Program-made: the position numbers and the translations under genes | Notes under the pieces: model-generated | Databases searched by the model: none | Seen by the model: only the letters and a program-made list of their open reading frames with translations | Told to the model about the DNA's origin: nothing | Source: Actinomycetota bacterium | Lineage (GTDB): Bacteria; Actinomycetota; Actinomycetes; Mycobacteriales; Micromonosporaceae | NCBI GenBank assembly: GCA_046728155.1 | Contig: JBKPDY010000124.1 | Location: 236-64,235, forward strand | Direction: 5' to 3' | DNA: 64,000 bases | In this document: positions 3,832 to 60,936 of the stretch, one piece after another | Numbering within the stretch: the first letter of the stretch is position 1 | Layout: every line of letters starts with the position of its first letter

Positions 3832-6060
3832 GTGCAGCGTAAGCCTTTGACCGTACGGGTGGCGCGATGGAGCGCGACGCACCCATGGCGTGCGATGGGA
3901 CTATGGGTCGCCTTCGTCGTCGCCGCGATAGCCGTCGGGGGCGTGGTCGGCGCGAAGCAGAGCAACGGCAACGACAACGCAGGCGAGACGGCGCGGATGG
4001 AGCAGATCATCGACGCCGCCCACTTCCCGGACCAGCCGGTGGTGGAGCGCATCCTCGTCACGTCCCCGGCCGGAGCGCTCGACCGGGCCGACGCCGCCCG
4101 GGCGCTGGATGACGTCGCGGCTCGGATGCGTGCCCTGCCCGGAGTCGCCGGCGTTGACAAGCCGGTGCCGTCACCGGACGGTACCGCGCTGATGCTCCCG
4201 GTTCGGATGGCCGGCGATCCCGGCGCGGCCGAGGATGGCGTGCAGCCGTTGCTCGATGCGACGGCCGCGGTTCAGCGCGACCATCCCGCGCTGCGCGTGG
4301 AGGAGGTCGGTCCCGCGTCGCTCCACAAAGGCCTCGGCGAGAAGATCAACTCCGACTTCAAGCGGGCCGAGATATTCAGCGTCCCGGTGACTCTGCTCAT
4401 CCTGCTGGTCGCGTTCGGGGCGCTGATCGCGGCCGGCGTGCCGGTCCTGCTGGGTCTCTCCGCAGTCGGCGCAGCGATCGGCCTCTCCGCGCTCGCCTCG
4501 TACCTCGTGCCGACCCAGGACACGACGAACAGTGTGATCCTGCTGATCGGTCTGGCGGTCGGGGTCGATTATTCGCTCTTCTACCTCAAGCGGGAACGAG
4601 AGGAAAGAGCCAAGGGGGCCGCTCACCTCGACGCGGTGGAGATCGCGGCCGCAACGTCCGGGCACGCGGTGGTCGTCTCCGGCCTTGCCGTCGTCGTCGC
4701 GATGGCGGGGATGTTCCTGGCCGGCGACAACATCTTCACCTCGTTCGCGGTCGGCTCGATCCTCGTGGTCGCCGTGTCGGTCCTGGGATCGTTGACGGTG
4801 CTGCCGGCGCTACTGGCCAAGCTCGGCCGTTGGGTCGACCGGCCGCGCATCCCTGTCCTGTGGCGCCTGACCGCGGCTCCTACCCGCCGCGGAGCTCACG
4901 CAGACACGAGTGCGGCGCCGCGGGCCTGGTCGGCTCTGCTCCGGCCGGCGCTGCGGTTCCCCGCGGCCGCCTTCGTGGTCTCGGCGGGCGCGCTGGTCCT
5001 GCTCGGCTTGCCCACGCTCGGGATGAACCTGCGCCTACCCGGGTTGCAGGATCTGGGACAGGACACGCCGGTGATGCAGGCGTACGCCCGGTTGACGACC
5101 GCCTTCCCGAGTACCGGGACCACCCACGTCGTGGTCGTCAAGGCGCCCGCCGCGCAACGGTCCGGGGTGGATGCTGCCCTGGTCGACCTGTCGTCCCGTA
5201 CCGCGGCCGACCCGCTCTTCGCGCACGATCAGCGTCCACAGGAGACAGTCTCGCCGGACGGGACGGTCACCCTGCTGGAGATCGGAACCCCGTACGCGCT
5301 CAACACCGACGGTGCGGACCGGTCACTGGACCGCCTACGGCACGATCTCGTGCCGGCCACCGTGGGTAGCGTACCGGGCGTCGAGTACGGCGTCACCGGG
5401 GAGATCGCGGGCACGACGGACTACTCGCAGCACGTCCGCGACACACTACCGGTTGTCGTAGCCTTCGTGCTCGCCCTGACCTTCATCGTCATGGTGTGGA
5501 CGTTCCGGTCGGTGGTCATCGCCGCGACCGCCATCGGGCTGAACATGCTCTCCGTGTGGGCAGCGTACGGCGTGGTCACACTGGTCTTCCAGCGCACGTT
5601 TGCTGAGGGTCTGCTCGGCTTCCACTCCAACGGGGGAGTCGTGTCGTGGTTGCCGCTGTTCCTCTTCGTCGTCCTCTTCGGACTGTCGATGGACTACCAC
5701 GTCTTCGTGGTGAGCCGGATCCGGGAAGGAGTCGACAAGGGACTCGCCACCCGCGACGCGGTCCGGCACGGGATCGTCCGTACTGCCGGGGTGGTGACCA
5801 GCGCGGCCCTGGTCATGGTGGGCGTGTTCGGGGTGTTCGGCTCGCTGAGCAGTCTGGACATGAAGCAGCTCGGCGTCGGTCTCGCCGTCGCGATCTTCGT
5901 TGACGCGACGCTGATCCGCGCGGTCGTCCTGCCATCACTGATGGCGTTGCTCGGCCGTGCGAACTGGTGGGCTCCCGGTTTCCTGCGCCGCCGCACGACG
6001 GTGGAACCCATTGAGCCGGAGGTGACAACGCCGGAGCCGGTCGCGGTCGGCTCACGCTGA
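3832..6060 (+). CDS. MMPL-family (RND superfamily) membrane transporter
   Basis: From ORF 3724..6060. Two-fold repeat architecture with GVDYSLFYLKRERE and GLSMDYHVFVVSRIREG motifs, each following a block of TM helices. Start trimmed to GTG 3832 behind GAGAGGGGA. Confidence 0.8.
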   Translation: MQRKPLTVRVARWSATHPWRAMGLWVAFVVAAIAVGGVVGAKQSNGNDNAGETARMEQIIDAAHFPDQPVVERILVTSPAGALDRADAARALDDVAARMRALPGVAGVDKPVPSPDGTALMLPVRMAGDPGAAEDGVQPLLDATAAVQRDHPALRVEEVGPASLHKGLGEKINSDFKRAEIFSVPVTLLILLVAFGALIAAGVPVLLGLSAVGAAIGLSALASYLVPTQDTTNSVILLIGLAVGVDYSLFYLKREREERAKGAAHLDAVEIAAATSGHAVVVSGLAVVVAMAGMFLAGDNIFTSFAVGSILVVAVSVLGSLTVLPALLAKLGRWVDRPRIPVLWRLTAAPTRRGAHADTSAAPRAWSALLRPALRFPAAAFVVSAGALVLLGLPTLGMNLRLPGLQDLGQDTPVMQAYARLTTAFPSTGTTHVVVVKAPAAQRSGVDAALVDLSSRTAADPLFAHDQRPQETVSPDGTVTLLEIGTPYALNTDGADRSLDRLRHDLVPATVGSVPGVEYGVTGEIAGTTDYSQHVRDTLPVVVAFVLALTFIVMVWTFRSVVIAATAIGLNMLSVWAAYGVVTLVFQRTFAEGLLGFHSNGGVVSWLPLFLFVVLFGLSMDYHVFVVSRIREGVDKGLATRDAVRHGIVRTAGVVTSAALVMVGVFGVFGSLSSLDMKQLGVGLAVAIFVDATLIRAVVLPSLMALLGRANWWAPGFLRRRTTVEPIEPEVTTPEPVAVGSR

Positions 6061-9202: not shown

Positions 9203-13008
<3,806 letters not shown>

Positions 13009-16079: not shown

Positions 16080-16097
16080 CCTGCATTTCTATGCAGG
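16080..16097. promoter_or_regulatory. ARG box (ArgR operator) candidate in the argC 5' region
   Basis: CCTGCAT-TTCT-ATGCAGG: 7-bp inverted arms containing the TGCAT-N4-ATGCA core of actinomycete ARG boxes. It lies 11-28 nt upstream of the argC ATG and overlaps its SD. Confidence 0.5.
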
Positions 16098-16190
16098 ATA
16101 CCGTATCAACATCCAGGCACCCGCTCCACCTGTTTCGGGGGATGGACGGCGGTCGGGTAGGGTCCGCAGGTCACCGTCTCCCCGGGAAGC

Positions 16191-16275
16191 TGATGACAAC
16201 GAGCCGGCATCGAGTGAGCATCGCGGGAGCGCCAGGCCCGCGGAGCGGAGCGAGCGCGGAGGCGAGCGGGCATGA
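16191..16275 (+). repeat. intercistronic repeat family, shortened copy C (termini only, no internal module)
   Basis: TGATGA-CAACGAGCCGGCATCGAGTGAGCATCGCGGGAGCGCCAGGCCCGCGGAGCGGAGCGAGCGCGGAGGCGAG-CGGGCATGA. It shares both termini with the copies at 32049-32237 and 60320-60490. Confidence 0.65.
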
Positions 16276-19252
16276 CGCGCGTATCGCCGTCCCTCGGGAC
16301 GAGCAGGTCCAACCCGCCACCGGCCGGCCGGCCGGCTGGCGCCGGCGGCTCCCCGACGCCATCACCGGCGCCGTTGTCCTGGCGATGATCGGTTTCGTCC
16401 TGGGCGGCATCGGCATCCAGCTCGCCGGCGTCCGTGTCCTGGCCGACACCAGCAGTCTGACCGTCTCCAGTGTCTATCGCGACGGCGGAATGCCGCAGAC
16501 GTCCTCGGGAACGCTTGGACTCAACGACACGATCGACGCCGCCACCCCGAACGAGGTGCTCTTCGGCACGGAGCTTCGCAATGGGGTCTTCGCCGACTGG
16601 AACCCGTACGCGTTGGGCGGCGCTCCGCTCGCCGCGACGCCGAACTTCGGCCTACTCTCGCCGCTGGCCGCACCCTTCTGGCTGTTGCCCGGTTGGCTGG
16701 CTCCGGCCTACGTCAAGCTGCTCGAATGCATCGTCGCCATCGGCGGCACGTACCTGTTCCTGCGGCGGTTGCGACTACGCCCGGCGGCCGCGTGTCTCGG
16801 CGGGACGATCTTCGCCTCAAGCGCCTTCATAGTGGCGTGGACCGGTTGGCCGCAGACGCGGACCGCCGTCGTGATCCCGGCCCTGTTCTGGTCATTGGAC
16901 CGGCTGGCTGAACGCCTGCGCTGGCGCGAGGCCGCGCTGGTTTCGCTCGCCGTGATGTGCCTGTTGCTCGGCGGCTTCCCGTCGGTCACCGGGTACGCCC
17001 TGCTGACCGGGGCGGCGTACCTGGCGGTACGTCTGCTCGCCCAGCGCCCACTGCGGTGGCCGGTGGTCGTGGCCCGGTCGGCCGCCGCCGCCGGTGCTGT
17101 CCTGGCCGGCATAGCGGCGACGGCCTGGCAGCTCGTCCCGTTCGCCCAGTACCTGGGCACCGCGCTGATCAGAGGGCGGGACCAGGTCTCCGGCCAGCAC
17201 ATCCCGGTCGAGGCTCTGCTGACCACGATCGCCCCGTACGCGCTGGGTACGGCGAGCGCCCGGAACGCGCCGACCTGGTTCGCGCCGGGAATCCTGGTAG
17301 AGGGCGAGTCGTACATCGGCGCGGCGGCGTTGGTGCTCGGGGTGGCGGCGGTGGCGCTCGCCGGACGGGCCCGGGCGTTACTGCCCCGTGGAGTCTGGTG
17401 GTTCCTCGTCGCCGCAACCCTCGGCTGGGGCGTGGTCATCTATCTCGGGGGGGCGCCGCTCGGGCTGCTGCAGCGGACCGGGTATCTCTTCTCGGACAAC
17501 TTCATCGGCCGGGCCCGGAGCATCCTCGGGCTGCTGGTCGCCGCGCTCGCCGCCGTCGGCTTCGAACTGCTCCTGCGCCGGCGGGAGGAGCACACCGTCA
17601 ACCCGCTGACCCGAGCCTCACGGGCGTACGGACTGGGCGTATGGCTCGCCGTCGCGAGCGGTGGCGCCGTCGTGTACCTCGTCGGGCGTCGGCTGGCCAC
17701 CGCCCGCGGAACCACGACCGTCTCGACGGCCGGGGCGGTCGGCCCCGACCAGGCCGTAAGTGATCTCACCGCGCTGAACCGACAACTGGCCATCGGTCTG
17801 CTCCTCGCCGCGCTGACCGGAGCCGCGGTTGCCTGGCTCTGGTTCGGCCGACAAGACGGGCTCGGCCGGCGCCGGCGGGCGCTCGTCACCGCCGCCGTGG
17901 TCCTCATCCCCGCCCTGGTCGCCGGCCAAGCGCTCGCGTGGGTACTGAGCTACTACCCACACTCGAAACGGGCGAACTTCTACCCCACCAACGCGGTACA
18001 CGACTACCTCGCCGCACACCTGGGGCACGAACGGTTCTACGGGACCGCCGGAGCGATCTACGGCAGCCTCGAGACCATCCACGGCCTGCGCCAGTTCCAC
18101 GGGCACGGATTCATGGAGCAGGAGTACGGCGAGCTTGCCGACGCTCTGCCCGGTCGCCAGTTCCCGCCCCCACCGAGACCGGCCACCATCATCGTCGGCG
18201 AGTCGGGCGACGCGGCCGAGGCCGTTGCACACAGCCCGATCCTGGATCGCGCCTCGGTTACCGAATACATCGCGCCGCCGGAGGTGCAGCCCTTCGGCGA
18301 CCTGCACCCCACGCCGACGGACGGGTCGAACGTGACGCTGACGCTCGGCCACCCGGTCACTGTCGAGGTGCCCACAACCGGACCGCTGCGCGGGATCGGG
18401 ATCACGCCGACCGGTTCCGTCGGGCCGACACTGCGGCAACAGATCGACGTCGCGTTGCGCGACGCCGACGGCACGCTCGTGGCCGAGGCGTCGCGAGTGG
18501 ACCGGGAGGTCGCCGCGGGTGTGCCGTTCGTGGTACCGCTCGCCGCGGACACCCTCGGCGGTTCCCTATCTACCGCCGGTCCGCAACTCACCGCGAACAC
18601 GCGACTTACCGCCACGATCACGCTGAAGGGGTTCTCGCTCGTCGGGGCTCCGCCGGCCCCGCCACCACGGCCATGGACGATCGCCGCCCGCCAGGGGACG
18701 CCGGCCATCACCGTGGTGACGCCGAGGCCGAACGACGGCCTGCGGCTGGCGTTCGACGGCCAATCGGTGATCTACCACCGCACGACCGCCCTTCCCCGGG
18801 CCCGGTGGGCGTCGTCCACTGTGGTCGTACCCGACGCACCCGCGCGGCTGAAGGTGCTCGCGTCCGGGAGGCTCACGCCGGACCAGGTCGTGCTGAACTC
18901 CCCGGGCGCACCGGCCGAGGGCCAACCCGCCACAGTGGACTGGATGGACGACGACCTGGACGAGTTGTCATTGCGCGTCGATGCCCACGGCGCCGGGTAC
19001 GTCGTCGTCGCGGACGCCATCCAGCACGGCTGGAAGGCCACAGTGGACGGTCACCCGGCCGCCATCGTGCCGGCCGATCACGCCTTCGCCGCCGTATCGG
19101 TACCGGCCGGCCGGCACACGGTCCGGTTCGTCTACGCCCCGGCCCGCGAATCGCTAGGGGTGGCCATCACCCTGGTCACTGTGCTGGGCCTGCTACTGGC
19201 GGCCGGCATCGAGTGGCGGCGGGAGCGTGCGCGGCGCAGCCGCCGCGGCTGA
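16193..19252 (+). CDS. YfhO-like GT-C family membrane glycosyltransferase (large polytopic protein with an extracytoplasmic C-terminal domain)
   Basis: From ORF 16091..19252. Many TM helices in the first ~600 aa. WNPYALGGAPLAATPNFGLLSP motif after TM1. C-terminal HTVRFVYAPARESLGVAITLVTVLGLLL anchor resembles YfhO-family ends. The start is uncertain: the 16091 ATG lies inside the ARG box, and the 16193 ATG is the left-junction ATG of repeat copy C. Confidence 0.6.
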   Translation: MTTSRHRVSIAGAPGPRSGASAEASGHDARIAVPRDEQVQPATGRPAGWRRRLPDAITGAVVLAMIGFVLGGIGIQLAGVRVLADTSSLTVSSVYRDGGMPQTSSGTLGLNDTIDAATPNEVLFGTELRNGVFADWNPYALGGAPLAATPNFGLLSPLAAPFWLLPGWLAPAYVKLLECIVAIGGTYLFLRRLRLRPAAACLGGTIFASSAFIVAWTGWPQTRTAVVIPALFWSLDRLAERLRWREAALVSLAVMCLLLGGFPSVTGYALLTGAAYLAVRLLAQRPLRWPVVVARSAAAAGAVLAGIAATAWQLVPFAQYLGTALIRGRDQVSGQHIPVEALLTTIAPYALGTASARNAPTWFAPGILVEGESYIGAAALVLGVAAVALAGRARALLPRGVWWFLVAATLGWGVVIYLGGAPLGLLQRTGYLFSDNFIGRARSILGLLVAALAAVGFELLLRRREEHTVNPLTRASRAYGLGVWLAVASGGAVVYLVGRRLATARGTTTVSTAGAVGPDQAVSDLTALNRQLAIGLLLAALTGAAVAWLWFGRQDGLGRRRRALVTAAVVLIPALVAGQALAWVLSYYPHSKRANFYPTNAVHDYLAAHLGHERFYGTAGAIYGSLETIHGLRQFHGHGFMEQEYGELADALPGRQFPPPPRPATIIVGESGDAAEAVAHSPILDRASVTEYIAPPEVQPFGDLHPTPTDGSNVTLTLGHPVTVEVPTTGPLRGIGITPTGSVGPTLRQQIDVALRDADGTLVAEASRVDREVAAGVPFVVPLAADTLGGSLSTAGPQLTANTRLTATITLKGFSLVGAPPAPPPRPWTIAARQGTPAITVVTPRPNDGLRLAFDGQSVIYHRTTALPRARWASSTVVVPDAPARLKVLASGRLTPDQVVLNSPGAPAEGQPATVDWMDDDLDELSLRVDAHGAGYVVVADAIQHGWKATVDGHPAAIVPADHAFAAVSVPAGRHTVRFVYAPARESLGVAITLVTVLGLLLAAGIEWRRERARRSRRG

Positions 19253-31092: not shown

Positions 31093-32055
31093 TCACTCGA
31101 CCGTGACGACGTGGTCGTCGGGAGCGGCCACGGTGCCGTCGTCGGCCAGGTAGTAGGCCTCGATGCGGTACCGGCCGGGGGTGAGGGTTAGCGTCACGGT
31201 CGCCGTTCCGACGTGCGGCGCGCCCTTGTCGAGCCTGACCGGCTGCGGGGTCACCACCGACCCATGCTCGTCCCAGACGATGAGCATGGCGACGGCCCCC
31301 GGAACTGATCCGACGATCTGCACCGGAACCGAGCGGCCGACGGTATCTCCTTGTTCGGGCCAGCTCAGCCAGACCGGCGCCTGAATATCCACGGCCTGCG
31401 CCCGTGCGGTCGGGTCCTTCACGTCGAGACCCCAGAGTTTCGTCCCGCCGTTCACCTCGACCCGTACGTTGACCAGTTCGGTATGTTTCTCCTGCGCGGC
31501 TACGGCCGTCGCGGTGTAAATGAGCTGCTGCAGCGCGATCTCCGCGTCCGCGGGAGCGGTGCCCGGCACGCCGACCAGGTCGACCCTGATCGTGGCGCCG
31601 GCCGTCTGTACCGACTGGACGGTCGCCGCGGCGGGCCAGGCGGTGTGGTAGTCGGGGTCGAGCGGGCGTCCGGCGATCATGTCGGTAAGGGCCGCCTTGA
31701 TCTGGTCATCGAGGCTCCCTCCGCCTGGATACGAGCGGTACTCGCGATAGAGCAGATCGCGACCCGACACTGTTCCGACAACATAGACCGGCAGCCGTGG
31801 ACCGGCCGGAACCGGCGTGGGTCCTATGCCAGGGGGCGGCGGCGCCGACCAGGGCAGCGTCAAGACAACCGCGGTGATCCCGGCGGCCGCGCTCGTGGCC
31901 AGGCCGGCCACCGTGATCGTCCAGAGACGACGGCGACGGGTGGCCGACCCGAGCCGGCGCCGGATCGTGGCCAGTGCGTCCGGGGCGGTCTCCACCCTCG
32001 CGGCCCGGTCTTCGAAGGCCTGCCGCAGCTCGTCCACAAACCTGTCGGTCATCCC
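31093..32055 (-). CDS. single-pass membrane protein with GerMN and Ig-like (Gmad2-type) extracytoplasmic domains; probable partner of the upstream ECF sigma factor
   Basis: From ORF 31093..32142. The ATG at 32055 gives MTDRFVDELRQAFEDRA, then one TM (WTITVAGLATSAAAGITAVVL), then the periplasmic domains. Its SD/ATG is supplied by the right junction of repeat copy A. Confidence 0.7.
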   Translation of the reverse strand, partial: GMTDRFVDELRQAFEDRAARVETAPDALATIRRRLGSATRRRRLWTITVAGLATSAAAGITAVVLTLPWSAPPPPGIGPTPVPAGPRLPVYVVGTVSGRDLLYREYRSYPGGGSLDDQIKAALTDMIAGRPLDPDYHTAWPAAATVQSVQTAGATIRVDLVGVPGTAPADAEIALQQLIYTATAVAAQEKHTELVNVRVEVNGGTKLWGLDVKDPTARAQAVDIQAPVWLSWPEQGDTVGRSVPVQIVGSVPGAVAMLIVWDEHGSVVTPQPVRLDKGAPHVGTATVTLTLTPGRYRIEAYYLADDGTVAAPDDHVVTVE

Positions 32056-32237
32056 TCCTCGCCTCCGCGCTCGCTCCGCTGCTGCCACCCCACGAAGACT
32101 CTCCGCTGCGCTCCACGTCTCCGCGGGGACCCCGGCCCCCACCCCACGAAGACGCTCCGCTTCGCTCCACGTCTCCGCGGGGACCCCGGGAAGGGCCTAC
32201 CGGCCCTGCGATGCTCACTCGCTGTCGGCTCGGTCAT
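32049..32237 (-). repeat. intercistronic repeat family, copy A (two 54-bp modules), containing a 62-codon ORF coupled to both neighbours
   Basis: The ORF's ATG overlaps the sigma TGA, and its TGA overlaps the ATG of the next gene. Termini are shared with the copies at 60320-60490 and 16191-16275. Flanked by the direct repeat GAGGGATGA (22 bp including adjacent identity). Confidence 0.8.
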
Positions 32238-32821
32238 CCCTCCTCGCCTCCCCCGCGGTCGAGGTCACGGCGCAGAGCGGCGATGCCCCGCGCGGTGTGG
32301 CTCTTGACGGCACCCTGGCTGATGCCCATCGCCTCGGCCGTCTGTGCCTCGGAGAGGTCGACGTAGTACCGCAACACCAGCGCTTCCCGCTGGCGGGACG
32401 GCAGTGTCCGGACGGCCGCGAGCATCTCGGCGTGGTGTTCGGCGGCGAGGGCGTGCGCCTCGGCGCTCGCCTCGGTCGGCGTCGGTCCCTGGCGGCGCAG
32501 GAAGCGGTCGACGACGCCGCGGTGGCGAAGTGCCGACCGGGACCGGTTGACCACGCTCTGGCGCAGGTACGCGACCGCCTTGTCCGGGTCGCGGAGCCGG
32601 CCCCAGGAGCGGTGCAGGCTGACGAAGGCGTCTTGCGTGATCTCCTCCGCGAGGCCGTCGTCGTGCAACAGCAATGCGGCGAGCCGGACAAGTGGGCGGT
32701 ACTGCGTGCTGAACAGGCGCGTGACCGCGTCGTCGGCGGTCCAGGCCGTGCTCAGCGCCGGTCCCGCGACGGGTGCCGGGTCGGGACGCGCCGAGGAGTT
32801 GCCGAACGGCGCGTAGGCCAC
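32234..32821 (-). CDS. ECF-type RNA polymerase sigma factor
   Basis: From ORF 32234..32908. Region 2 (LVRLAALLLHDDGLAEEITQDAFV) and region 4 HTH (SEAQTAEAMGISQGAVKSHTARG). The start is uncertain. GTG 32821 behind GGAG was chosen to avoid overlap with ribH. Confidence 0.8.
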   Translation of the reverse strand: MAYAPFGNSSARPDPAPVAGPALSTAWTADDAVTRLFSTQYRPLVRLAALLLHDDGLAEEITQDAFVSLHRSWGRLRDPDKAVAYLRQSVVNRSRSALRHRGVVDRFLRRQGPTPTEASAEAHALAAEHHAEMLAAVRTLPSRQREALVLRYYVDLSEAQTAEAMGISQGAVKSHTARGIAALRRDLDRGGGEEG

Positions 32822-36274: not shown

Positions 36275-36384
36275 GTGCCTGGCCCTCCTCGGATCGCGCC
36301 GCTGGGGCGCGCGGGCGAGGCGGGAAGCAAGGCGGGGGCGCGGCGACTGTGGCGCTGCCGTAGCGCACGTCTCCGTGCCGACCG

Positions 36385-36542
36385 CGCGCTGTCTCCCATC
36401 CGGACTCTGACCGTCGGCTCCGGAATCACACCGGATCCACCGGAGGCTGGCTGCCACCGGGTCGCGGGCTTGGCGGGCTACTCCACGTGAGTTGAGCCGC
36501 CATCACCGCCGGTTCGGAATTTCACCGAATCCCGCCAGCGCG
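36385..36542 (-). ncRNA. FMN riboswitch (RFN element) upstream of ribD
   Basis: Sense RNA reads CGCGCUG-GCGGGAUUCGGUGAAAUUCCGAACCGGCGGU...CCGGUGUGAUUCCGGAGCCGACGGUCAGAGUCCGGAUGGGAGA-CAGCGCG. The canonical conserved cores and the P1 closing stem are both present. Confidence 0.9.
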
Positions 36543-36630
36543 CTGGTGGGTATGCCTCGAGTGTGCCACCGCGGCCATCGGCTCGACAGGCCACCCATCC
36601 GGCGGGCGGGCGATGTTGGTCACAGCCCGG

Positions 36631-59996: not shown

Positions 59997-60323
59997 ATGG
60001 TTAATAGTCAGGCTCACCCGCTGGACCGGACGTTCGCGGCTCTAGCCGACCCCACCCGGCGCGACGTCGTCGCCTCGCTCGCCACCGGCCGCCGTACGGT
60101 CGGTGAACTCGCCGCCCCGCAGCCGATGTCGCTGGTCGCCGTCACCAAGCATCTGACCGTGCTCGAGCGGGCCGGCCTCGTCGAACGGGTCCGGCACGGC
60201 CGTACGGTCGTCTGCAGCCTGCGCGGTCGTCCCCTGGCCGAGGCCTCACGGTGGCTCGATCGCTACTACGCCTTCTGGACCGACCGCCTGGACGCTCTCG
60301 AGTCATACCTGGGTCAGCCGTGA
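59997..60323 (+). CDS. ArsR/SmtB-family transcriptional regulator
   Basis: From ORF 59955..60323. FAALADPTRRDVVASL and the HTH VGELAAPQPMSLVAVTKHLTVLERAGLV. Start uncertain (59955 or 59997). Confidence 0.85.
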   Translation: MVNSQAHPLDRTFAALADPTRRDVVASLATGRRTVGELAAPQPMSLVAVTKHLTVLERAGLVERVRHGRTVVCSLRGRPLAEASRWLDRYYAFWTDRLDALESYLGQP

Positions 60324-60490
60324 CCGCCGAGCCGACAGCGAGTGAGCATCGCAGGGCCGTCAGGCCCGAGCCGGGGCCCCCGCGGAGACGTGGAGCGCAG
60401 CGGAGCAGCTTCGGCGAGCTTGCGAGCCGACCAACGAAGCATTGCGCGGGGTGGCAGCAGCGGAGCGAGCGCGGAGGCGAGCAGTCGTGA
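60320..60490 (+). repeat. intercistronic repeat family, copy B (one divergent internal module), containing a 56-codon ORF coupled to both neighbours
   Basis: The ORF's GTG overlaps the ArsR TGA (GTGA), and its TGA overlaps the ATG of the SRPBCC gene (TGATG). Left and right termini are the same as in copy A. Confidence 0.8.
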
Positions 60491-60936
60491 TGCACCTACG
60501 ACTCGAGCGGACGCTGGCCGCGCCGCCCGTGCGGGTGTGGCACGCGCTGACTGACGCCGACGAATTGACCCGCTGGTTCTGGCCGGCATCGTACGGGACC
60601 CTGGTGGAGGTGGATCTTCGTCCCGGTGGCTCATTGCGGATCGACGCGCCCGGACTGATGGGGGTTCAGGGCGAGTACGTGGACATCGACCCACCCCGGC
60701 TGCTCGCCTTCACGTGGCAGTGGAACGGCGAAGCGGAGCGGACGGCCGTACGGGTAGAACTGTCCCCCGTGGACGGTGGGACCCGCCTCGTCCTTGTGCA
60801 CGAAGGATTCGCCGACCCGGCGACCCGCGAGAGCCACACGACCGGGTGGTCGGACTGCCTTGACCGGTTGCCCGCTCACCTCGCCGGCGACGACCGGGAC
60901 CGTGCACTCTTCGATGCACGTGCACGCGACGGCTGA
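60490..60936 (+). CDS. SRPBCC (AHSA1/START-like) domain protein
   Basis: From ORF 60442..60936. MHLRLERTLAAPPVRVWHALTDADELTRWF is typical of Aha1-like SRPBCC proteins that pair with ArsR regulators. Confidence 0.75.
   Translation: MHLRLERTLAAPPVRVWHALTDADELTRWFWPASYGTLVEVDLRPGGSLRIDAPGLMGVQGEYVDIDPPRLLAFTWQWNGEAERTAVRVELSPVDGGTRLVLVHEGFADPATRESHTTGWSDCLDRLPAHLAGDDRDRALFDARARDG

Follow-up and report, generated by a model that had tools for sequence, protein, structure and literature searches.

We analyzed a 64,000-nt stretch of contig JBKPDY010000124.1 (GCA_046728155.1) from a member of the Micromonosporaceae, hereafter called the window, and examined an insert that separates the gene for an extracytoplasmic function (ECF) sigma factor from the gene for a Germane (GerMN)-domain protein on the minus strand. 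This insert, designated copy A, is quite likely one copy of a non-autonomous intercistronic repeat of the mycobacterial interspersed repetitive unit (MIRU) type. The same terminal boxes recur at unrelated gene junctions, the element follows the orientation and reading frame of its neighbors, and relatives of the host carry the sigma/Germane junction without it.

Results

An insert with stop/start overlaps at both ends

On the minus strand, the sigma factor open reading frame (ORF) terminates with ...GGAGGCGAGGAGGGATGA, its TGA at 32236-32234, and the next ORF opens with ATGACCGACAGG at 32052. The initial annotation had placed about 180 bp without an independent gene between these two ORFs; the interval measured 181 nt and is also left as a gap by public gene callers. 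The flanking direct repeat, which had been described as perfect and extending to 22 bp (32045-32066 and 32230-32251), was reproduced, the two copies of TCGGTCATCCCTCCTCGCCTCC being 100% identical and spaced 185 nt start to start. The 62-codon frame proposed to overlap both neighbors was recovered as well, with its ATG overlapping the sigma TGA and its TGA overlapping the Germane-gene ATG, and the GGAGG that the 3′ end of the element was said to supply as a Shine-Dalgarno sequence was found 9 nt ahead of the downstream ATG. Two tandem 54-bp modules had been noted inside the insert, and these were detected by Tandem Repeats Finder (period 54, 1.9 copies, 96%) and by a second repeat finder (89% in its own register). 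A consensus scan, which is of limited value for actinobacteria, revealed no promoter- or terminator-like site in copy A. The Germane protein of the window is identical in GCA_046724325.1 and in two Joint Genome Institute (JGI) metagenomes. Every detail of the initial annotation that was checked against the sequence proved correct. The coordinates of these features are collected in Table 1.

Dispersed copies in the window and in other actinobacteria

Both 32-nt termini of copy A match exactly at 60327-60358 and 60450-60481, whereas none of 100 shuffles yielded any such match, and profile hidden Markov models (HMMs) of the two boxes identified exactly three copies (A, B, and C) in the window. 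These results uphold the claim that the same termini recur near 60320-60490 and, shortened, near 16191-16275. For copy B, the upstream stop codon (60321-60323) lies within GTGA, the boxes occupy 60328-60354 (5′) and 60455-60481 (3′), and a mini-ORF of 56 codons runs from GTG at 60320 to the TGA at 60488-60490, ending on the AHSA1/SRPBCC ATG at 60490. Copy C, with its 5′ box at 16200-16226 and its 3′ box at 16241-16266, occupies the leader of a large ORF (16091..19252) that encodes a membrane protein and is divergent from argC. Its mini-ORF (ATG 16193, within TGATGA) is in frame with the membrane-protein ORF, the ATG at 16273 after the 3′ box is out of frame and dead-ends after ~39 codons, and the following in-frame ATG falls within the first hydrophobic segment of the protein. 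Copy C is probably translated as the N terminus of this membrane protein, whose start codon is therefore likely mis-called. In-frame fusion to the downstream ORF, as in copy C, was also observed at two loci in other genomes (L006 and L020; L numbers denote the loci retrieved from outside the window).

Table 1. Features of copy A, its neighboring genes, and the other two copies in the window
Feature	Positions	Strand	Details	Evidence
Copy A insert, between the sigma stop and the Germane-gene start	32053..32233	-	181 nt	
Upstream 22-nt direct repeat, GGAGGCGAGGAGGGATGACCGA	32230..32251	-	contains sigma TGA 32236-32234 and mini-ORF ATG 32237-32235	
Downstream 22-nt direct repeat	32045..32066	-	contains GGAGG 32066-32062, mini-ORF TGA 32051-32049, and Germane ATG 32052-32050	
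Bridging mini-ORF	32049..32237	-	62 codons, ATGA overlap at each end	ORF list
5′ box, CGAGCCGACAGCGAGTGAGCATCGCAG	32206..32232	-	near-identical across family copies	nhmmer E = 4.9e-07
Hairpin 1, GGGCCGGTAGGCCC	32193..32206	-	stem-loop of variable sequence	folding and family covariation
Hairpin module 1, CCCCGCGGAGACG...CGTCTTCGTGGGG	32142..32182	-	13-bp stem, two G·U pairs, GGAG-rich loop	
Hairpin module 2	32088..32128	-	tandem copy one 54-nt period downstream	repeat finding and folding
3′ box, ...GCGGAGCGAGCGCGGAGGCGAG	32058..32084	-	with Shine-Dalgarno sequence	nhmmer and exact terminus match
ECF sigma-factor gene	32234..32821	-	195 aa in public assemblies	Sigma70_r2, r4, r4_2
Germane (GerMN)-domain gene, downstream of copy A	31093..32052	-	319 aa	
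Copy B, ArsR-family gene/AHSA1-SRPBCC gene junction	60320..60492	+		box HMMs, exact termini
Copy C	16193..16275	+	minimal unit without module	box HMMs

A sample of the family was obtained by scanning species-representative genomes with an exact 20-mer of the 3′ box as the seed. At least 67 loci were returned; roughly one-half are fortuitous hits within genes from unrelated phyla, and the remainder are true copies. Genes at these loci were called by heuristics based on ORFs and on GC content at third codon positions (GC3), and all counts for the family given here and below are among the matches listed, with the window copies included. Pairing of 5′ and 3′ box matches gave at least 42 complete copies (41 distinct) at at least 36 sites, and the existence of further copies, in several actinobacterial families, is thereby established. 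The carriers among the matches listed belong to Micromonosporaceae, Geodermatophilaceae (Geodermatophilus obscurus DSM 43162, Blastococcus mobilis, B. tunisiensis, and Modestobacter), Pseudonocardia, and Nocardioidaceae, together with metagenome-assembled genomes (MAGs) labeled "Mycobacteriales bacterium" and unclassified Actinomycetota MAGs.

The element begins with (A/G)TGA and 1-8 nt, followed by the 27-nt 5′ box CGAGCCGACAGCGAGTGAGCATCGCAG, by hairpin 1 (14-47 nt, differing in sequence among genomes), by 0-2 modules of ~54 nt, and by the 27-nt 3′ box GAGGAGCGGAGCGAGCGCGGAGGCGAG with its GGAGG; after a further 2-9 nt comes ATG(A), and the element's own GGAGG stands 6-9 nt before the downstream start. 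Both boxes are almost invariant across several actinobacterial families and purine-rich on the same strand, and neither a repeat search of copy A nor the family alignment disclosed terminal inverted repeats or pairing between the two boxes. The minimal unit measures 77 nt from ATG to ATG and is repeated head to tail in L008, L017, and L051; unit arrays were present in these loci and in L067. The host junctions are functionally unrelated and include L4 to L23, entries into Pgl, ArgG, TrpD, and RibH, a second ECF sigma factor and its partner, and ArsR to AHSA1.

Several individual copies deserve description. The copy between rplD (L4) and rplW (L23) lies in the essential S10 operon (L012, 1930-2045), where the insertion is evidently tolerated. 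The copies at L005, L012, and L014, all from one MAG (GM_EKS_MAG_00029), are each 100 nt long and possess 46-nt cores that are entirely different, each closed by its own perfect stem, and thus combine hypervariable sequence with constant length. A copy of the window's own subfamily, with the hairpin GGGCCGTCAGGCC and a GAGACG-type module, follows a 1552-codon ORF on a contig binned as "Candidatus Methylomirabilota" (L013, 6270-6500, minus strand of the locus); probably an actinobacterial contig was mis-binned here and no cross-phylum transfer took place.

Database searches returned little. The three window copies matched nothing in Rfam at the gathering score, and at E ≤ 10 gave only a 9.7-bit chance match. 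A blastn search in distant mode against annotated plasmids and phages was without a match, although some of the query may have been lost to low-complexity masking, and IMG/VR viral contigs contained 0 matches to the 5′ box and 0 to the MIRU core, leaving no sign of a phage vector. Literature searches by box sequence recovered only an unrelated mouse primer, and the open-access papers searched contained no relevant description of MIRU-like elements outside mycobacteria. The repeat family, which is common in soil actinobacteria, is apparently uncatalogued so far.

Empty sites and the origin of the insert

The nearest relatives of the Germane protein are only 50-60% identical. Four relatives (L072, L075, L074, and L070) keep the order rib operon-sigma-Germane-mscL(-)-hisE-hisG without the insert. 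The junction reads ...GGGGGAGGAGGCACT GTGA CCGATCC in L072 and ...CCGGGAGGTGCGCG GTGA CCGACCC in L075, each with a 4-nt overlap, and ...GGAGGCGGGGGCC ATGACTGA ACC in L074, with an 8-nt overlap, while L070 has a 16-nt gap between the two genes. No copy of the element was found in the 20-kb loci of the relatives, only a different 63-nt repeat. These junctions therefore place a Shine-Dalgarno sequence, a 4-nt (A/G)TGA overlap, and a Germane N terminus of (V/M)T(D/E)P in the ancestral state. The initial annotation had postulated such an ancestral stop/start overlap and an empty site, and the junction topology agrees in these relatives of 50-60% protein identity. The window lineage gained 185 bp at this position (the 181-nt insert and a second ATGA), and its sigma C terminus is just one residue longer than those of L075 and L074.

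The composition of the 22-nt repeat is informative about the target. The CCGA to the right of ATGA is native, since the orthologues carry GTGACCGA, and the 14 nt to the left (GGAGGCGAGGAGGG) constitute the end of the element 3′ box plus the spacer. The native junction of L074 already contains GGAGGCG, and this motif and the 14-nt match indicate that the target resembled a unit junction, either before the insertion or via later gene conversion. Long repeats with GGAGGCGAG upstream of the first full unit were also present at L060, L043, and L030. Across the family, the direct repeats always include (N)TGA; they span 3-11 nt in most solo copies and 17-33 nt in four copies, copy A among them. At L030 (~4665-4696), an internally deleted unit, ATGACCGAGC joined to GCGGAGGCGAGCGAGCATGA, lies directly upstream of a full unit, and its deletion between the CGAGC repeats of the 5′ and 3′ boxes shows the origin of short "scar" units and partial 3′ boxes.

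The relatives carry other repeats at gene ends. In L070 (~9960-10003, corresponding to ~675-717 of L071), a 20-bp tandem duplication (GGAGCGGTCATGAGCA... twice) at the sigma/Germane junction creates a 7-codon mini-ORF between two ATGA overlaps without any element, possibly a "proto-MIRU" generated by junction slippage. Other minisatellites start at the GTGA or ATGA stop of a gene and occupy 5305-5573 and 322-585 in L075 and 5364-5476, 4228-4383, and 9879-9979 in L072. They include 63-nt units in L075 (4.3 copies, 100% identical, with a GAGCGAGCGCGAGGAGGCGAGCG that resembles the element 3′ box), and, in L072, 30-nt units both after the same GGDEF gene as in L075 and at 4228-4383, as well as a 15/30-nt repeat within the sigma C terminus. 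Stop/start junctions thus look like repeat hotspots in this lineage. Were the insert itself a local minisatellite, formed in place by slippage or duplication and neither mobile nor dispersed, the L070 duplication with its mini-ORF, the minisatellites that start at GTGA stops, and the 54-nt modules of copy A, which amount to a local tandem duplication, would all be in keeping with it. We nevertheless consider a purely local origin very unlikely, as independent formation of the same 27-nt boxes at at least 36 unrelated junctions and at three window sites is impossible; the dispersed identical termini refute it as a full explanation, and it is valid only for changes in the number of modules and units.

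A complete flavin mononucleotide (FMN) riboswitch (RF00050, 92.4 bits) was located at 36384-36543 on the minus strand, ahead of the riboflavin operon that lies upstream of the sigma gene.

Orientation and reading frame

The copies, which had been expected to be enriched at gene junctions, sit there in the sense orientation: the downstream gene was co-oriented with the element in 37 of the 41 copies according to strand calls from GC periodicity; counted by independent site, the figure was 33-34 of 36 (binomial p about 1e-7; both among the matches listed). Twenty-seven copies start at (A/G)TGA 5-10 nt ahead of the 5′ box, and in 13 cases this tetranucleotide is precisely the end of a long upstream ORF with high GC3. 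Within this set of 27, the mini-ORF ends in NTGA on the next start in 24 copies, so that both neighbors are overlapped, is fused in frame to the downstream ORF in three, and is out of frame in none. The frame is kept across nine element lengths (67, 70, 71, 86, 100, 131, 140, 154, and 175 nt), and changes in length are therefore constrained to preserve it. In contrast to this coupled arrangement, the boxes of L048 (5915-5983, G. obscurus DSM 43162) lie free in a spacer of ~235 nt, ~30 nt past the upstream stop and ~140 nt before the next ATG, surrounded by GAGCG-rich repeats, and the same non-coupled intergenic mode was seen in L021, L028, L033, L034, and L058, all from Geodermatophilaceae.

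The encoded peptide is not what is retained. The boxes are read in two frames depending on the lineage (MTEPTASEHR... versus MSTASRQRVSIA...), with 5′ box start offsets of -5/-8 versus -10/-13; the 3′ box is also read in two frames, and a TGA closes the third frame of the 5′ box. The 62-aa peptide had no homologue at E ≤ 0.001 among 5.8 billion proteins. The use of two box frames and the lack of a peptide homologue indicate that the element is constrained to be translated from end to end, whatever peptide results. A true gene for a small protein, such as a third component of the sigma system, would fit the open frame with its Shine-Dalgarno sequence and ATG and the retention of that frame in most copies, but we regard it as extremely improbable: the peptide is without a detectable homologue in the above search, the frame is absent from the orthologous loci, the peptide is unconserved while the DNA is conserved, and the conservation extends to third codon positions. 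This interpretation, and with it the ancestral small gene that the initial annotation had named as the alternative to an insert, was rejected.

RNA structure

Copy A folds with a free energy of -99.7 kcal/mol on the sense strand (z = -2.6) versus -69.2 kcal/mol on the antisense strand (z = +0.2), the latter being no better structured than shuffles. The sense strand was the more stable in 40 of 41 distinct copies, by a mean of 8.9 kcal/mol that is partly due to G-rich composition. The closing stem of hairpin 1, defined purely by distance from both boxes in module-free copies, was 86.2% paired versus 57.3% in shuffles (0 of 500 reached the observed value) and 11-48% in slid controls, with both partners changing in four of the five pairs. 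The 13-bp module stem was 99% paired over eight distinct instances, a small sample; it shows a single A-U/G-C swap, and two of its positions switch among G·U, A-U, and G-C. The G·U pairs exist on the gene-sense strand only, which favors a role as RNA.

These structural results bear on the possibility of exaptation as a cis-regulatory RNA, in which case the element would be more than a passenger that is tolerated, and the hairpins and GGAG-rich loops would be retained for control of the sigma:partner ratio, as RNase processing or stabilizer sites, or as 30S standby sites. The strong covariation of hairpin 1, the strand-specific G·U pairs of the modules, the near-invariance of the boxes across several actinobacterial families, and the many Shine-Dalgarno-like GGAG motifs in the loops and the 3′ box are consistent with such a role, as is the location of two of the three window copies and of L067 in regulator/partner pairs for which stoichiometry matters. 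On the other hand, the host operons are functionally unrelated, relatives dispense with the element at the orthologous junction, copies differ freely in module number and in hairpin sequence, copy A has no terminator- or promoter-like signal by the consensus scan and no Rfam family, and the conserved structure could equally serve spread. We therefore view cis-regulation as possible yet rather doubtful, noting that it may hold alongside the explanation presented below.

Discussion

A proposed relay of translational coupling by a tolerated element

We consider the repeat most likely to be a mobile or minisatellite element that is tolerated and that relays the translational coupling of its neighbors. 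It would be transcribed within the operon mRNA, as the lack of promoter- or terminator-like signals in copy A and the pairing specific to the sense strand indirectly suggest. Ribosomes completing the sigma factor would start again at the overlapping ATG, open the hairpins as they translate the 62 codons of the mini-ORF, terminate at the second ATGA, and re-initiate on the partner gene. With the coupling relayed rather than broken, insertions at such junctions would be tolerated and the insert would be nearly neutral; the 24:3:0 frame distribution would then follow from selection that removes copies breaking the relay. The number of copies and modules would change by tandem duplication or deletion in frame-preserving steps, and colonization of new sites probably targets NTGA junctions similar to the junction between units of the element (GGAGG-N6-9-ATGAcc). 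The variable-length repeats with element ends, the partial 3′ boxes upstream of arrays, and the deleted unit of L030 speak more for recombination or template switching at junction-like microhomology, together with slippage, than for cut-and-paste movement by an enzyme that duplicates a target of fixed length.

Several considerations weigh against this explanation. Flanking direct repeats that range from 3 to 33 nt fit no single simple transposition mechanism, and no mobilizing gene was identified, no transposase search having been made. The sample of copies is biased by its seeding on an exact 3′-box word, and copies that share one genome are non-independent events. The Geodermatophilaceae copies, which lie free in intergenic spacers and overlap neither start nor stop codons, show that coupling is not universal in the family. 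Finally, we infer all three central steps, namely transcription through the element, translation of the mini-ORF, and the relay of coupling.

A relic of a hairpin-guided single-stranded DNA transposon, comparable to REP or PATE elements, moved by a Y1 transposase of the IS200/IS605 or RAYT type, and inserting 3′ of NTGA, was also considered. The element is strictly strand-specific and devoid of terminal inverted repeats, a subterminal hairpin adjoins the 5′ box, most copies have the same tetranucleotide at the left flank and the right end, and a strand-specific NTGA target would give the orientation relative to genes automatically. We find this origin quite improbable nonetheless: there is no hairpin at the 3′ end and the minimal units have one stem-loop only, the direct repeats often far exceed 4 nt and contain element sequence, the head-to-tail arrays of L008, L017, and L051 are atypical, the G·U pairs favor RNA over DNA pairing, and no transposase was seen, although none was searched for.

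The family has practical consequences. The elements are left as unexplained gaps by gene callers, and start calls are probably affected in copy C, L006, and L020. The arrays are candidate variable number tandem repeat (VNTR) markers for strain typing in Micromonosporaceae and Geodermatophilaceae, and the units would represent natural, portable translational couplers for high-GC hosts. Because cultured carriers exist (Geodermatophilus obscurus DSM 43162, Blastococcus mobilis DSM 44272, and Blastococcus tunisiensis DSM 46838), the hypothesis is experimentally tractable.

Comparison with known systems

The REP/BIME, ERIC, BOX, and Correia/NEMIS repeats are, like the element described here, short, multi-copy, structured, and non-autonomous, and they are co-transcribed with their neighbors, as this element would be (PMC3184786). 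They are palindromic or bounded by terminal inverted repeats, occur in both orientations, and have neither systematic stop/start overlap nor a bridging ORF, whereas this element has no inverted termini and is ~90% co-oriented. Classification as a miniature inverted-repeat transposable element was rejected since no inverted repeat joins the termini and the direct repeats vary in length rather than being fixed. Rickettsia palindromic elements (RPEs) insert into genes, and the host protein includes their translation product. In-frame retention is common to the RPEs and to this family, in which 3 of 27 copies, copy C included, are apparently fused to the downstream protein; the usual state here is instead a separate mini-ORF between genes. 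Bicistronic designs and leader-ORF couplers similarly use a short ORF to bring ribosomes to a downstream start by stop/start overlap (PMC12548453), rendering downstream initiation insensitive to local structure, but those are synthetic single constructs whereas this element is natural, dispersed, and repeated.

The closest likeness is to the MIRUs. According to the passages of PMC3184786 and PMC12548453 that cite Supply et al. (1997), MIRUs are 40-100 bp in length, are present in 40-50 copies, lie inside operons with polycistronic transcription, carry ORFs that overlap both neighbors with -4 spacing, and insert at start codons with tetranucleotide direct repeats; elsewhere they are described as "found only in mycobacteria" (PMC6286618). 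MIRU motifs are printed in PMC6286618 and PMC10117815, and a benchmark assembled from the common core of the published motifs provided 120 metagenomic loci with 160 MIRU cores. These real MIRUs have the form NTGA-CCCGCGCCGGC GACGATGCAGAGCGAAGCGATG-(optional hairpin)-AGGAGGAGCGGCGC-N2-4-ATGA, with unit periods of 53, 77, and 110 nt (all 2 mod 3), and in the same pipeline 84 of 113 mini-ORFs ended in NTGA and 102 of 111 copies were co-oriented with the downstream gene. We know of no explanation, since 1997, for the route by which MIRUs move.

The intercistronic architecture with a small ORF overlapping both neighbors, for which the initial annotation had likened copy A to MIRUs, matches the fetched MIRUs in both layout and statistics. 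Each family shows, in order, NTGA, a 5′ box, an optional hairpin module in a corresponding position, a 3′ box of the GAGGAGCGG type that bears a Shine-Dalgarno sequence, and ATGA; unit periods are 2 mod 3 in both, with a shared 77-nt class, and both form head-to-tail arrays. The downstream gene is co-oriented in 92% of MIRUs and 90% of this family, the mini-ORF overlaps both neighbors in 74% and 89%, respectively, and empty versus filled sites with short direct repeats are known for each. In the family described here, unlike the MIRUs, hairpin 1 spans 14-47 nt and is hypervariable in both sequence and length, the 54-nt modules contain G·U pairs, and the non-coupled intergenic mode occurs in Geodermatophilaceae. 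The MIRU hosts are Mycobacterium and the family hosts listed lie elsewhere, although such a listing does not show absence from Mycobacterium.

The 9-mer GAGGAGCGG at the start of the 3′ box is the sole shared sequence. Local alignment to the MIRU consensus (motif B, GGCGCCGGTGACGATGCAGAGCGTAGCGA; motif A, TGACGAGGAGCGGCGCAGATGGCA) scored 26, compared with 25.6 ± 4.7 for shuffles. Reciprocal nhmmer searches reached at best 9.4 bits for the MIRU HMM against the family loci and 8.7 bits for the family HMM against the 120 MIRU loci; all of these matches fell off the elements, and reversed-sequence controls attained 8.6 and 6.2 bits. Sequence homology to MIRUs was thus rejected at the sensitivity available. 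As the layout and statistics are alike and homology is undetectable, we conclude that the repeat is not a MIRU and belongs to a separate family of the MIRU kind.

A broader and unlikely reading is that MIRUs and this family are two branches of one ancient, actinobacteria-wide "ribosome-relay" class, the near-invariant boxes of which are recognized by a conserved host factor. That factor, be it the ribosome, an RNase, or a recombinase, would both spread the elements to NTGA junctions and enable their use by the cell. The shared layout, the position of GAGGAGCGG, the place of the hairpin, and the junction minisatellites in L075, L072, and L070 are compatible with, but do not prove, a common class of this type, under which changes in units and modules would be heritable, quickly adjustable settings of the expression ratio for coupled genes such as a sigma factor and its partner.

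A second, sequence-unrelated family with the MIRU design in several other actinobacterial lineages signifies that the design is general and is either convergent or very old. Comparison of the two families could separate the needs of the mechanism (NTGA ends, a Shine-Dalgarno box, a covarying hairpin, and 2 mod 3 periods) from incidental features.

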